Below are positions 3,644-25,345 of a stretch of DNA of 64,000 bases, in pieces. Every line of letters starts with the position of its first letter. Position 1 is the stretch's first letter. The notes beneath the pieces were generated by a model, which was not told the origin of the DNA, searched no databases, and worked only from the letters and a program-made list of their open reading frames with translations. The position numbers were made by a program, and so were the translations under genes. This DNA comes from Eledone cirrhosa (taxonomy: Eukaryota), in NCBI GenBank assembly GCA_964016885.1, contig OZ024740.1:316696001-316760000 (forward strand), in the 5' to 3' direction.

Positions 3644-3793
3644 AAGAATGAGAAATAAGATAGATTGAAAGAACGGAATTGGAAAAAAATGTCTTTAGAT
3701 AAAAATAGCAGGTCCATTCATGTTGGCATCTCTTTATATATATATATATATATATATATATATAGTTATGTAATAAACAACATAAGATAATTA

Positions 3794-3854
3794 TTTCATT
3801 TACCAGTGGTTTCTTGAAAGCAAACAAAATTTGCTTTCAGTCATCAGAATGAAA
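3794..3854 (-). ncRNA. Type I hammerhead ribozyme, family C
   Basis: TTTCATT-CTGATGA-cTGAAAGCAAA..TTTGCTTTCAa-GAAA-CCA(c)TGG-TA^AATGAAA. Confidence 0.85.
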
Positions 3855-3989
3855 ACATCCTGGTGGATTTATTGACAGTGGATTTTAAAAACAAAAATAT
3901 AATCTATATGAAAGGAAGAAGGAAAGGAAAAAGAATAAATATAAAAGTAGATAAACACACCTGCACACACACACACACACATATATACA

Positions 3990-4410
3990 CAGACACACAT
4001 ATATACACACGTACATACACACATATACACGCATACATACGCACACACATATATAGATATATGTACACACACCTACATACGCACACACAATTAATTATAA
4101 GAAAAAATAATAATAATAAATAAAAATAAAAAACAATGGACAACCATATAATGCAATAGGCCGTCACATAAAATAAAAATAAAAATTATTATAAAGTTGA
4201 CAGCGATACAGGAATAATTTTTATTTTCTTAAGTCGTATATTTTTATTTTTATGTGACAGCCTATTACATTATATGGTTGCCCATTGTTTTTTATTTTTA
4301 TTTTTTATTATTATTTTTTCTTATAATTAATTGTGTGTGTGCGTATGTAGGTGTGTGTACATATATCTATATATGTGTGTGCGTATGTATGCGTGTATAT
4401 ACGTGTGTAT
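3990..4410. repeat. Long inverted repeat
   Basis: ~3990-4180 is the reverse complement of ~4240-4410. Confidence 0.8.
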
Positions 4411-4695
4411 GTACGTGTGTATATATGTATGATTATGTGTGTGTGTGTATATATATATATATATAAATGAAAAGTATAGAAAGTATTGTAAGAAGAAGCC
4501 AACAGTATTCCATAATATATAATACAAATTAAATATAACCTCTACATATATATATATATGTGTAGTGGTTATATTTAATTTGTTGGGATACAACAAGCAA
4601 AATATTTTTATAACTGATATAAAGCACTCAACAAATTATTGGAGTAAAATATACAATATATTAACAAATGGAAACTATATTTACAAAACCATATT

Positions 4696-4761
4696 TATTT
4701 CATTATACTTATTTCAAGGGCCACCAAGGTAAACTATGGTGCGCTTTCATCAGATAAAATA
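4696..4761 (-). ncRNA. Type I hammerhead ribozyme, family D (left arm of fold-back)
   Basis: TATTTTAT-CTGATGA-AAG..CACCA..TGGTG..CTT-GAAA-TAAGTA-TA^ATGAAATA. Confidence 0.75.
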
Positions 4762-4859
4762 TAATATAGGTTAGTTTTATACTATCCAGGAGATTCCAAC
4801 CAGAATGGTTGCATTTTTCAGGGTATGTCAATATTTATTTATAAAACTAACCTATATTA

Positions 4860-4925
4860 TATTTTATCTGATGAAAGCGCACCATAGTTTGCCTTGGTGG
4901 CCCTTGAAATATGAATAATGAAATA
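4860..4925 (+). ncRNA. Type I hammerhead ribozyme, family D (right arm)
   Basis: Same motif on + strand; stem III partly degenerate (TATGAA). Confidence 0.7.
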
Positions 4926-21645: not shown

Positions 21646-21651
21646 CGGCGC
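21594..21651 (+). promoter_or_regulatory. -1 ribosomal frameshift signal (slippery heptamer plus pseudoknot)
   Basis: G_GGA_AAC in gag frame; stem AAGGGGAACTAC/GTAGTTgCCCCTT; loop GCGCCG pairs with CGGCGC at 21646-21651; pol is in the -1 frame and open from the slip site. Confidence 0.85.
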
Positions 21652-24394
21652 TGCCCGTGGTGGAAGTCTTCGTGAGGGGAAAGCCACAGCGAGCCCTCGT
21701 GGACACGGGCTGTACAACGACAGTGGTGACCGCGGGGGTGGCGCAGAGGTGGAGAGGGAAAAGCAGTGTAAGGGCAGTCGACGGCAAGAAAATTGAATGC
21801 CGAGGTCGCAGCGAGATGGAAATAGAGGTACGGGGAAGGAGAATAAGGCTTTCTGCCATCGTAGTAGACAGCGTGGTGGATGGGATCGGCGTGGTTATAG
21901 GCATGGACGCAATTGGCCGTCTAGGAGGCGTCACGGTGAACAACGTCGGTGTGTCGTTTGGCGCCGCTGCATCGGTATGCGCTGTGAGTGCACGTCATGA
22001 GAACCAGAAGGCCCACGAGGAGAAATACCCCGCTTACACTGTGCAGGACAAAGACTTCAAGGCCGTGTTTGATGGGCAGCGATGGGTTGTTGAGTGGTAC
22101 TGGAAGGGAGAACCACCAACACTGAAGACCAAAGTGGGCTGCTATCAACACACATTGAAGGGAAACGTTAGGAGCGAGTTCGAGCGAAAAGTAGAGAGAT
22201 GGATCGAAGAGGGCATACTGCTTCCCTGGAAGGAGGAGGTGAAATGCGGAGTATTGCCGTTAATGGCGGTGGTGCAACCCACGAAGAGCAAGGTGAGGCC
22301 GGTGCTGGACTATCGGGAGCTGAACGAGCACGTGTCGTGCCACACGGGTGGCGAGGTGACGGATGTCTGTGGGGAAACCCTGCGTGAGTGGAGACGCATG
22401 ACGGGGGGTTCAGCGATCGTAGATCTAAAGTCGGCGTACTTGCAGTTGCATATAGACGAGAAGCTCTGGAGGTATCAGCTGGTCAGGTATAAGGGCCGGA
22501 CATATTGCCTGACCAGGCTCGGTTTCGGGCTGAGCTCCACACCGAAGATCATGGCGGCGGTCCTCAACACCGTTCTGGGGAAGGCCGACAAGATGAAGAG
22601 GGCTACTAACTCCTATATTGACGACATCCTAGTGGACGAGTCTGTGGTGTCGGCGGCGGAGGTCGCGAGCCATTTGCAGGGGTATGGACTGGTTGCGAAG
22701 CCGTCAGAAGCATTGGAAGGAGGAGCCGCGTTGGGACTTAGGCTACGGCGAGACAGGACGGGCGTTTTGGTATTCCAGAGGAGAAACGAAGTTCCGGAAC
22801 TGGCCCCAAGTATGAGTAGGCGGGAGCTTTTCTCGGTGTGTGGAAAGCTGGTGGGTCACTACCCGATCGCTGGGTGGCTCCGGACGGCATGCAGCTATGT
22901 CAAGAGACGAGCGGGAGGAGTGACTTGGAGTGACAGAGTGGGAGAGAGGACGGTGGCCATGATGCAGGAGATCGTGGGGAGGGTGAAGGCAGACGACCCA
23001 GTGTGGGGACGCTGGTATGTTCCCAAATCACAGAGCGGGACCGTATGGTGCGATGCCAGCAGCATAGCGCTGGGTGTCACGTTGGAGATAGGAGGTGTTG
23101 AGGTCGAGGATGCAGCCTGGCTTAGAAAGAAGGACGACTGCAACCACATCAATGTGGCCGAACTGGACGCGGTGTTGAGAAGGGTGAACCTCGCCCTGCG
23201 GTGGGGGCTGCGCACCATCGAGATACGCACCGACTCGGCTACTGTACTCGGATGGGTGAGATCAGTGCTCACCAGTGAGAAGAGAGTGCGAACGAGAGGC
23301 GCGGTGGAGATGCTGATAAAGCGCCGCCTGGGAACTTTAGGAGAGCTGGCCACCGAGTTCGACCTGAGGCTGAGCGTAGTTTTCGTGCCCTCGGAGAAAA
23401 ATAGGGCGGACATCTTAACTAGGGTGAAGAAAGCCTGGATGGAAGCGCCGGAGGAGGTGGAGGATGAGATAGCTGCCGTGTGTCGGCTGACTGAGTCGGA
23501 TCTGAAAGGGTTGCATGACATGCACCACATGGGAGTGGATAGGAGCCTGTTCCTGGCCAGGAGAATCGACTCGGACGTGAACAGACACAGTGTTCAAAGA
23601 GTGGTTAGAGGCTGCGTCCGACGTCAGTCCATTGATCCCGCCCCGGGTGTACACGAAACGGGAAGCCTCCCGGTGGATCGCGACTGGAAGCGATTAGCGG
23701 TGGATGTGACGCACTACCGGCAGGGAACGTACCTCTCGATGGTCGACTGTGGACCAGGACGGATGGCGATATGGAGGGAGATGGAGACTGGAACGGCGAG
23801 GAGATCGTGCGGACGTTGAGAGAGGTGTTCTTGGAGCGGGGCCCTGTGGACGAACTGCTGATGGACAACAGCTCAGCGTTCCGCTCGGAAGCACTGAGGG
23901 AGATGCTCGATGGATGGGAGGTGGACCGTTTCTTCAGAGCGGCGCACAGGCCGAGCGGGAATGGAATCGTGGAGCGACACCACCGGACGATCAAGGCAAT
24001 GGCGGAGCGGGGCCATATCTCACCAATGGAGGCAGTGTTCTGGTGCAGCATGTCCCCTCGGGTAGGACAGGTCGAGGAATCGGTGCCACACAGAGCAGTT
24101 TTCAAATACGAGTGGCGGCACCCTTGCACGCCACCGCGGCGGCCAGTGGGGAGAGAGAGTGCATTCGTGCAGGTGGGCGAGGAGGTCTGGGTTGAGCCTC
24201 CAGATGCACGTTGCGCATCTCGGTGGGGAAGGGGAACGGTGGCGGTCGTAAATTCAAAGAACAATGTGTCCGTGGATGGGGTACCACGTCATGTCCTGGA
24301 TGTGGGAAGAATCGCTGTGTCGACGGGCTCCGAGGGGGGGGGGGGAAGCCCAAGGTTCTGCCCCAATGCTGCAGAGATCGCAGCGAGGTCGTAG
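21600..24394 (+). CDS. pol: Pol (protease, RT, RNase H, integrase), frameshift near 23790
   Basis: LVDTGC, VDLKSAYLQ, YIDD, WCDAS, LAVDVT, LMDN, NGIVER. Confidence 0.9.
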
Positions 24395-25118
24395 ACCACC
24401 AACCTGGACGGCGGACTTTCACATGCAGAGAGACGAGGAGGAAATTGATCCTTGAGATCAGGGGGGGGGGGGCTTGGCCGGGGGGGAGAGAGCGCTCTCT
24501 GGTGGTGCCTGGCGGCGGGGTGAGCGCCAGTTTGGGCAGTGCCTAGCAACGGGGTGAACGCGAGTTTGGGCAGTACCTAGCAACGGGGTAAACGCCAGTT
24601 TGGGCATCTCCCAGTGTTAGGCAGTTGGACGCAGGCGGGCGAGGAGTAACCAGCAGTGGAGATAGCGGCGCCTATGAAGAGCGAAACGATATGGCACTGT
24701 TTGTACCAATTAGAAACTACCAGTCTAGGAGAATGGACATATAAGAACTGGTCTTTAAACTACCATGAGTGGAGATGGCAGCGCCTATGAAAAGCGGTGA
24801 GTGAGATGGCTTTTTCCAACAGCATTTTTGGCTGTGCGAATGATTGTTTAAGCATCGTCTCAGCGTGTTGGTATTAAACGTTAGTTATAGCTCTGGTTTA
24901 TCCGAACCATTGAGCACTTTGCCGCACATTTCGAAGATTGTTTTTTCGTTATTTCGTGAGCCGAAGTTCCGATTCTCGATAATTAATTTGTATATATATA
25001 TATATATATATATATATATATAAATGAAGTAATTCCGTCGGAAAAGTCCAGGAAAAAAGAGTGCTCTATGTAGGTAACAGAGCTTAATAGTTATGTAATA
25101 AACAACATAAGGCAATTA

Positions 25119-25179
25119 TTTCATTTACCAGTGGTTTCTTAAAAGCAAAAAAATGTTGCTTTCAATCATCAGAATGAAA
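25119..25179 (-). ncRNA. Type I hammerhead ribozyme, family C (left arm of fold-back ~25089-25335)
   Basis: CTGATGA..GAAA-CCACTGG-TA^AATGAAA. Confidence 0.85.
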
Positions 25180-25243
25180 AAATTCTGGTGTATTTATTGG
25201 CGTTGGTTTTTAAAATCCAATGCCAATAAATACACCAGGATTT

Positions 25244-25304
25244 TTTCATTCTGATGATTGAAAGCAAAAATTTTTTGCTTTTAAGAAACCACTGGTAAAT
25301 GAAA
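25244..25304 (+). ncRNA. Type I hammerhead ribozyme, family C (right arm)
   Basis: TTTCATT-CTGATGA-TTGAAAGCAAAA..TTTTGCTTTTAA-GAAA-CCACTGG-TA^AATGAAA. Confidence 0.85.
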
Positions 25305-25345
25305 TAATTGCCTTATGTTGTTTATTACATAACTATATATATATA

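Follow-up and report, generated by a model that had tools for sequence, protein, structure and literature searches.

Family C, a hammerhead-bearing repeat that occurs four times in the 64-kb stretch of Eledone cirrhosa DNA analysed here (the window), probably represents the 5'-truncated 3' ends (pseudo-LTR region) of a Hydra-type Penelope-like retrotransposon (PLE; rough probability 0.6). The element was most likely a coding one, with its ORF further upstream. That the repeat carries a hammerhead ribozyme is supported by its core, its helices and a descriptor search.

The original prediction had placed the repeat at three loci. An nhmmer profile and a covariance model, both trained on the same four copies, recovered these in the window at E-values of 1e-47 to 1e-84 and at 153-160 bits, respectively, in agreement with that prediction. 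The fold-back proposed on both strands at about 25021-25335 was likewise confirmed, as a head-to-head pair of copies (Cm and Cp, 25021-25336). The covariance model found no fifth copy in the window, its next match being a diverged relative at 6507-6628 (38.6 bits). ARAGORN found no tRNA, a 25-nt exact pattern had no match in prokaryotic genomes, and blastn against GenBank phage records returned no match. The window also contains a gap of Ns and a 4-kb duplication whose copies are 96% identical. In window coordinates, the features are:

3762..3960, minus strand: unique part of copy A, with a pyrimidine-rich leader, the hammerhead and a short 3' end at 3762 entering (TA)n at 3735-3764
3794..3854, minus strand: predicted hammerhead of copy A, with a C·A mismatch at the stem II base; C3 at 3847, cut expected after A17 at 3801
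3961..4238, minus strand: likely continuation of copy A in the 5' direction, comprising a TG-rich tract, an AT-rich non-coding part as far as 4181 and a 57-nt spacer up to 4238
4239..4448, plus strand: inverted arm of the copy A upstream region, mirroring 3969-4181 and halting in a TG/TA tract short of the hammerhead
6506..6628, minus strand: family D, a diverged sister copy with the 3' terminus and the (TA)n junction of family C but different stems I and II
9868..10123, plus strand: body of copy B; short TA/TG tract, leader and hammerhead, to the short-end position
10031..10091, plus strand: predicted hammerhead of copy B; C3 at 10038, predicted cut at 10084, a C-G to U·G change weakening stem I
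10124..10189, plus strand: optional 66-nt 3' tail of copy B; 7-bp hairpin with AC-rich loop, then (CA)7(TA)n to 10293
25021..25215, minus strand: copy Cm, long-end arm of the fold-back; tail at 25021-25086, ending in (TA)n at 24991-25022
25119..25179, minus strand: predicted hammerhead of copy Cm; C3 at 25172, predicted cut at 25126
25208..25215, no strand: TTTTAAAA palindrome, exact fold-back centre (25211.5) and native to the element
25208..25336, plus strand: copy Cp, short-end arm of the fold-back, ending in a short (AT)n followed by a SINE-like repeat
25244..25304, plus strand: predicted hammerhead of copy Cp; C3 at 25251, predicted cut at 25297

All four copies contain a predicted type I hammerhead, with an intact core, a 7-bp stem I and a near-palindromic stem III. 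The conservation claimed for the core and stem III holds, as CUGAUGA...GAAA...GUA and ACC-ACU-GGU are invariant in 4/4 copies. The same is true of stem I, which is intact throughout family C apart from the single C-G to U·G change in copy B. The core CUGANGA, GAAA and a UH cleavage site occur in the expected order in each copy. Across the three helices, with stem I open, 96.6% of 88 cells are paired, against 39-56% in slid controls. The minimum-energy fold is a three-way junction in A, Cm and Cp; it is not in B. Our first, strict descriptor accepted only a paired stem II foot and recovered two of the four copies; its two misses exposed the C·A mismatch at this position, and the descriptor was relaxed afterwards. 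With the relaxed version the family C copies score 21-22; 20 rounds of block-wise dinucleotide shuffling of the window produced a single match overall, with a score of 14. The G10.1-C11.1 pair that closes stem II is highly conserved in hammerheads, though not absolutely. It is missing from family C, where this position is C·A in A and B and U-A in Cm and Cp.

A chance resemblance to a hammerhead, combined with a fold-back created by faulty assembly or sequencing of microsatellite-rich DNA, is highly improbable. Such a reading would fit the absence of Rfam support: nothing matched at the gathering score, and relaxed E-values over 3300-10400 and 24950-25400 brought up no hammerhead family, only hairpin and microsatellite noise. 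It would also fit folding z-scores of only -1.6 to -2.3, and the presence of the N gap and of the duplication in the window. However, the shuffled windows stayed below the scores of the real copies. Moreover, the fold-back arms differ at 5/125 positions and finish at different sites, each of which is common to another locus. Finally, in family D, whose core has one mismatch (CAGACGA), both strands of stem I are changed together relative to family C.

The original prediction had further held that changes in stem II keep pairing, and this was not borne out. Both of the quoted changes are single C/T swaps, neither of them two-sided: the first stem II position is mismatched (C·A) in CTGAAAGC/GCTTTCAA and paired (U-A) in TTGAAAGC/GCTTTTAA, and the third pair passes from G-C in the former to G·U in the latter. 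A random transition in these 7 pairs leaves a standard pair in 7/14 cases. Because the fold-back arms are of one origin, only two stem II haplotypes are present. Only at the pair that closes the loop (U·G versus A-U) do both sides differ, and the observed covariation score was reached in 93/500 shuffles; on these grounds we rejected covariation within family C. Structured positions do vary less than others (3/54 versus 14/71, Fisher p 0.033), a difference that we consider weak because the partition was our own, the 3' flank is equally conserved (2/32), and subfamily-diagnostic sites give p 0.46.

Family C has two fixed 3' ends, 66 nt apart, which sit 39 or 105 nt beyond the predicted cut; the 66-nt tail is present on 2/4 copies, and on one arm only of the Cm/Cp pair. 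The claim that every copy adjoins a TA or CA tract was confirmed, with 4/4 3' ends running directly into (TA)n or, in copy B, into (CA)7 followed by a TA run. Roughly 1.8% of non-tract positions lie within 15 nt of a tract edge. The suggested microsatellite preference is supported for family C. Target-site duplications are unreadable inside TA tracts. The original prediction would have given way to copies that are always the 3' ends of a longer coding element inserted at random sites; the first half of this description looks correct, and the second does not apply.

At their 5' ends the copies are staggered, beginning 89, 216 and 380-437 nt upstream of the predicted cut, and an inverted arm is present at 2/3 loci. 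Copy A appears to reach 4181 or 4238, where it meets its own inverted arm at 4239-4448, and 3961-4238 is probably part of the same element. Copy B, which spans 9912-10189 (+) in the repeat call, has a 14-nt insertion in its leader relative to copy A. When we looked for a shared 5' end, the arms at 25 kb began at the palindrome, and A and B lost unique similarity at one TG tract, beyond which A appears to continue. This (CA)n/(TG)n tract occupies one and the same place on the 5' side of both copies and is probably the element's own.

Could family C instead be a non-coding, non-autonomous derivative of 200-500 nt, carrying the hammerhead and 3' cis signals and moved in trans by the RT and endonuclease of a Hydra PLE? 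The insertion mechanism would be the same as for a truncated coding element, with the donor alone differing. In favour of this possible but doubtful reading, there is no ORF beside 4/4 copies, A and B lose unique similarity at one point, the stretch upstream of copy A is AT-rich and has no match to a PLE profile, and PLE derivatives of this kind are known (MRC1, PMC8557442; a pLTR acting in trans, PMC3846280). Yet truncation of a coding element explains the missing ORF equally well, because the copies reach 89-437 nt and the distance from ORF to cut in the ORF-bearing PLEs of the window is 584-1495 nt. In addition, the upstream arm of copy A is duplicated in inverted orientation, as expected for a longer truncated copy. 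With common 3' ends and staggered 5' ends that all fall short of the local ORF-to-cut distances, the label 'non-autonomous' in the original prediction was not substantiated.

Remnants of Hydra-type coding elements are present in the window. A profile of 120 homologues identified four forward PLE ORF remnants, at 37.1, 40.6, 46.5 and 59.7 kb, the first two of which lie within one duplication. Where the relevant regions survive, they show the Hydra motifs DKT, CxCx5C and CxxC..E, and a hammerhead-like motif closes each of them, 40-100 nt ahead of (TA)n. As Pfam does not recognise the PLE RT, the assignment to the Hydra clade rests on motifs and homologues. The lead to a PLE in the original prediction is supported. 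No family C copy is joined to an ORF, however: from 514 to 35.7 kb the profile picked up no piece of a PLE. A sequence link from family C to the ORF-bearing PLE 3' ends was tried and rejected. The similarity 3' of stem I was not significant (202-965 of 1000 shuffles did as well), and the covariance model matched two ORF-bearing PLEs only at E 1.1-1.9. A 12-nt match of family C at 48641-48652 has E 0.7.

Published Hydra-clade PLEs (e.g. Hydra-1_Obim and Penelope-n_HM) resemble family C closely. Hydra PLEs carry canonical hammerheads and insert near-universally at (TA)n (PMC8557442). Like family C, they have a sense type I hammerhead near the 3' end with a 4-bp helix III and a tiny loop, a (TA)n target, 5' truncation, an inverted partner and an optional tail. 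In the supplement to Craig et al. 2021 (PMC8557442), 24 of the 26 rows were computed (two were left out), and 23 of these place the cut at 30-153 nt from the 3' end. By our reading, the foot of stem II carries an additional base on either strand in 19/26 rows, unpaired in 15 of them, as in family C; a non-pair at this position is thus common among Hydra hammerheads. Helix III is acca-a-tggt in Hydra-1_oBim and acca-c-tggt in family C. Hydra-1_Obim is listed there without a pLTR, and none of the family C copies forms a direct tandem pLTR. The differences are that family C has no linked ORF here, a tail of 66 nt rather than the 30-40 nt usually cited, and a stem II of 10-12 bp rather than 3-7 bp. 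Moreover, most published consensi of Hydra elements measure 2.1-2.7 kb and include an ORF of ~700 aa, leaving short 3' UTRs, whereas copy A has 380-437 non-coding nt upstream of its cut. None of six short family C motifs was found in the supplement.

For PLEs, the literature describes inverted 5'-truncated partners, junction palindromes and a tail confined to one arm (PMC8557442, PMC3846280). Penelope of Adineta vaga (PMC3846280) and Poseidon PAc of the anole (PMC11167929) share with family C head-to-head inverted pLTRs, a junction palindrome, a one-arm tail, two RT start sites and an AT-rich target, but belong to the Penelope/Poseidon clade. In the anole PLE two RT start sites lie one tail length apart (PMC11167929). 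The PAc ORF begins inside the hammerhead, whereas ATG-started frames in family C, as read from the sequence, stop after a few to ~16 codons. The PLE pLTR hammerheads of Cervera and De la Peña 2014 (PMC4209133) are likewise type I, with a palindromic helix III suited to dimers and a long helix II, and occur mostly as solo copies ascribed to truncated PLEs, with opposite-strand pairs 100-700 bp apart. Family C departs from the minimal form in its real 4-bp helix III and its 7-bp helix I, and it is without the G10.1-C11.1 pair that they report as conserved.

Very unlikely, in our view, is a non-LTR retrozyme spreading through small circular RNAs, of which the copies would be dispersed monomers. 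Animal retrozymes (PMC7229834; bioRxiv 10.64898/2026.07.22.740005) do share with family C a non-coding type I hammerhead unit with an intact core, of 200-300 nt and low GC, and a probable PLE origin. Dispersed monomers exist, and a derivation from PLE pLTRs has been argued (bioRxiv 10.64898/2026.07.22.740005). However, the class is defined by head-to-tail tandem repeats, which yield the circular RNAs, and the window has no head-to-tail unit. Family C copies are solo or, in the sole pair, head-to-head, with staggered 5' ends and ends that do not map to the cut site.

If family C derives from a truncated Hydra-type PLE, its insertion may be reconstructed as follows. Each copy consists of a sense type I hammerhead, 39 or 105 nt of further sequence, and then a TA-rich microsatellite. 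Judging from published PLE work, the GIY-YIG endonuclease would nick (TA)n, and the RT would then prime on the RNA from either of two fixed positions, which leaves a short end in one case and the 66-nt tail in the other. The staggered 5' ends are observed, and the 25-kb locus folds back exactly on the native TTTTAAAA palindrome; here the new DNA may self-prime or anneal, generating the head-to-head partner, and the two arms would finish at different sites. The hammerhead is predicted to be weak as a monomer and may work in tandem source transcripts, as a dimer formed through the near-palindromic stem III; in folding calculations stem III pairs in the monomer with a probability of 0.52-0.64, and its self-duplex has -8.2 kcal/mol. 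The genomic copies are probably inert relics, and any transcript spanning the 25-kb locus would form a long hairpin that buries the ribozyme.

All head-to-head pairs in the window with two readable 3' ends (5/5) combine one long and one short end. The pairs counted were that of family C and those at 4.6-5.0 kb, 25.9-26.4 kb, 42.7 kb and 45.2-48.7 kb; in the last, the partner at 48.7 kb has a predicted cut site at about 48710 in its sequence. The 42.7-kb fold-back is centred on its own stem III palindrome. A more speculative and unlikely idea casts family C as a solo, non-coding parasite of Hydra PLEs that carries a hammerhead and forms neither tandem arrays nor circles; its stem III would serve to dimerise the RNA and so bring two templates to a dimeric RT. 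Such a scenario would account for both the five long/short pairs and the centre of the 42.7-kb fold-back and, if true, PLE hammerheads would gain a role besides cleavage.

If truncation of a Hydra-type PLE is the right explanation, family C is one more family of such elements, and the finding is mostly ordinary. Its importance then lies mainly in repeat annotation, where fragments without an Rfam match would pass for unknown repeats, SINEs or microRNA-like hairpins. How PLEs integrate is also illustrated compactly by the window, which shows two fixed 3' ends, folding back on a palindrome native to the element, and long/short ends in every readable pair. Counted genome-wide, such features could test how PLEs complete integration and what role the hammerhead plays.

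The original prediction placed a single hammerhead-bearing repeat, family C, in three regions, and the three do share one repeat, with four homologous copies among them.

Copies of family C, with the cut sites at which self-cleavage is predicted from sequence
3762-3960, - strand: copy A, predicted cut 3801
9912-10189, + strand: copy B, predicted cut 10084
25021-25215, - strand: copy Cm, head to head with Cp, predicted cut 25126
25208-25336, + strand: copy Cp, head to head with Cm, predicted cut 25297

Neither a profile nor a covariance model, both built from these four copies, turned up a fifth one anywhere in the window; the next-best match was a diverged relative at 6507-6628. 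Within the 125 nt common to all copies, A differs from B at 4 sites and Cm from Cp at 5, and between the two groups there are 11-14 differences. Thus, the copies represent three insertion events and two subfamilies. The repeat landscape of the window appears octopus-like.

Each copy carries, in order, stem I (UUUCAUU), CUGAUGA, a stem II of 10-12 bp, GAAA, CC-ACU-GG, UA and the second strand of stem I, which marks the motif in all four as a putative type I hammerhead. With a relaxed descriptor, loosened after a stricter version had missed A and B, the copies scored 21-22; across 20 block-wise dinucleotide shuffles there was one match in all, with a score of 14. The Rfam search left the motif undetected. 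That family C is an artefact is very improbable, the least probable reading we considered. The three-way junction is the minimum-energy fold of A, Cm and Cp, and in copy B a C-to-U change costs the fold its stem I (pairing probability 0.25). Stem III forms only a marginal hairpin (pairing probability 0.52-0.64) and is near-palindromic, with a computed self-duplex energy of -8.2 kcal/mol, the same pattern as in PLE (Penelope-like element) hammerheads acting as dimers, as described in PMC4209133 and PMC6765202. A transcript spanning the 25 kb fold-back is predicted to form one long hairpin that would bury the ribozyme. A hammerhead could also signal a retrozyme, which we consider very improbable here; the tandem arrangement that defines retrozymes was not found in the window.

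The claim that changes in stem II keep pairing did not hold. In the stem cited for it, copies A and B have C·A at the first position where Cm and Cp have U-A, and the third position holds either G-C or G·U; both changes are one-sided C/T differences rather than two-sided ones. Only the loop-closing pair is a two-sided cell in the alignment of the four copies; the covariation score was reached by 93 of 500 shuffles, and random transitions in the cited stem keep a pair half of the time (7/14). The covariation argument was overstated and fails; the repeat itself is real. The relative at 6.5 kb offers better support for the fold than covariation within the family: it has the 3' end in common (5/1000 shuffles against A, 43/1000 against Cp), and its stem I is altered on both strands, with a core mismatch present. 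At 6506-6628 (-), this sister of family C has the same 3' terminus, other stems and a CAGACGA core, and it adjoins the 3' side of a LINE.

The predicted microsatellite flank was borne out, as all four 3' ends pass directly into (TA)n or (CA)7(TA)n, and about 1.8% of non-tract positions in the window lie as near to a tract edge. The 3' ends are of two fixed lengths, a short one 39 nt beyond the cut (A, Cp) and a long one 105 nt beyond it (B, Cm); the long end has an additional 66-nt tail, which includes an AC-loop hairpin. At the 5' side, the copies begin at staggered positions. A TG-rich tract, at an equal position 5' of A and B, is probably internal to the element; copy A appears to extend on to 4181 or 4238, and its inverted arm, 4239-4448, ends within a TG/TA tract. 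The midpoint of the 25 kb fold-back, 25211.5, falls on TTTTAAAA; copies A and B contain only one other 8-bp palindrome. In the window, all head-to-head pairs in which both 3' ends can be read (5/5) have one long and one short end, an outcome expected 1 time in 32 under independent even choice; this count leaves out the 39.2 kb duplicate and three inverted arms that stop short of the 3' end (4.2, 36.0 and 60.7 kb).

Other repeats and elements in the window
42655-42840 (duplicate near 39173-39385): a further hammerhead family, whose stem III palindrome is AUGCGCAU; this palindrome, at the predicted cut, forms the centre of the 42.7 kb fold-back, which has a short and a long arm
25886-26395: same family as the preceding; main copy and a 38-nt inverted partner that comprises just the long end
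4560-4968: two hammerheads of another family, head to head, with cores at 4753 (-) and 4868 (+) and with (TA)n 144 and 50 nt away
26413-26698 (-) and 35499-35776 (-): minimal hammerhead family, cores 26666 and 35744
3530-3720 (-): further minimal hammerhead family, core 3639
2905-3506, 8953-9103, 58788-58937: fold-backs of 150-220 nt, no hammerhead detected
9219-9871, 25374-25723, 48770-49129: SINE-like repeat of ~340 nt, also at (TA)n tracts, with a weak tRNA-like head under the Rfam gathering score; head to head at 9.2-9.9 kb, and immediately adjoining copies B and Cp
20416-24824 (+): LTR retrotransposon-like, terminal repeats 89% identical and containing a 34-nt tandem repeat; matches to zinc knuckle, aspartyl protease and DUF7047
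6748-8976 (-): LINE-like RT (RVT_1), then a PHD-finger-like domain
31273-34274 (-): broken ORFs matching Pif1 helicase, presumably Helitron-like
17991-19540 (+): two ORFs of ~240 aa without a Pfam match, which we take to be similar to the C-terminal region of a restriction-like-endonuclease retroelement

The RT-like ORF at 46875-48023 matched 372 proteins, and among the best 120 of these, used for a profile, DKT and CxCx5C each occur in 111 and RWK in 72; all three are diagnostic Hydra-clade motifs according to PMC8557442. The profile located forward PLE ORF remnants at 37.1, 40.6, 46.5 and 59.7 kb and, in inverted orientation, fragments at 36.0 and 60.7 kb, with no match between 514 and 35.7 kb. 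In the remnants of the window, DKT, CxCx5C and CxxC..E are present wherever the regions that hold them remain. Past the ORF of all four forward remnants, a hammerhead-like motif follows after 584-1495 nt (core altered in 3/4), then 40-100 nt, then (TA)n.

Hydra-type PLEs and their surroundings
45230-48721 (-): nearly full-length, broken PLE with DKT, YRDDG and CxCx5C; inverted partner 48511-48721; hammerhead variant whose core is CUGAGAA, with a long insert in stem II and a palindromic loop on a 6-bp stem III
59041-60961 (-), 40577-42606 (+), 37069-39126 (+): PLE remnants, each with a hammerhead-like motif at its end and (TA)n 42-54 nt further on; the motifs at 39 and 42 kb have a CCGAAGA core and a perfect stem III palindrome, ACAGCUGU
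36376-44089: 4.3-kb tandem duplication, 96% identical, (TA)n-rich, beside an N run near 35780-35970; either real or a mis-assembly

The element at 45.2-48.7 kb has an inverted partner whose 3' end is shorter, the same anatomy as the head-to-head pair Cm and Cp, with an ORF inside. No sequence link was found between family C and the 3' ends of the window's ORF-bearing PLEs, and the donor would therefore belong to a different family. That donor could have been non-coding and moved in trans, which seems possible but rather unlikely; we favor a coding donor, with a probability of roughly 0.6.

By analogy, family C would work as the 3' ends of Hydra-clade PLEs do; as no copy is linked to an ORF, it is a candidate rather than a formal member of the clade. 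In the Hydra table of PMC8557442, 23/24 rows computed have 30-153 nt between the cut and the end (an antisense row and a row whose motif is at the 5' end were excluded), extra bases stand at the foot of stem II in 19/26 rows by our own reading, and a (TA)n preference is listed for nearly all families, including Hydra-1_Obim of Octopus bimaculoides, whose protein the 46.5 kb protein resembles in a comparison by eye only. No description of family C was found in the literature, Repbase, Dfam and most subscription papers being outside the search scope; the accessible main text of PMC13282606 makes no mention of ribozymes or Hydra, and that of bioRxiv 10.64898/2026.07.22.740005 names no mollusc in its sampling, with supplements that may list related families.

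The anatomy relevant to mechanism comprises two fixed ends, TA junctions and a palindrome-centred inversion. Following published PLE work, (TA)n would be nicked at the insertion site, priming would occur at one of two internal RNA sites (PMC11167929), the new copy would be truncated early at its 5' side, and the inverted arm could form via self-priming or annealing at the palindrome (PMC3846280). Hammerhead cleavage may be dimer-dependent and take place in tandem source transcripts; for an anole PLE, PMC11167929 reports that protein is required for cleavage, and that cleavage is dispensable for insertion in vitro. Family C is thus best read as the truncated ends of a Hydra-type PLE.
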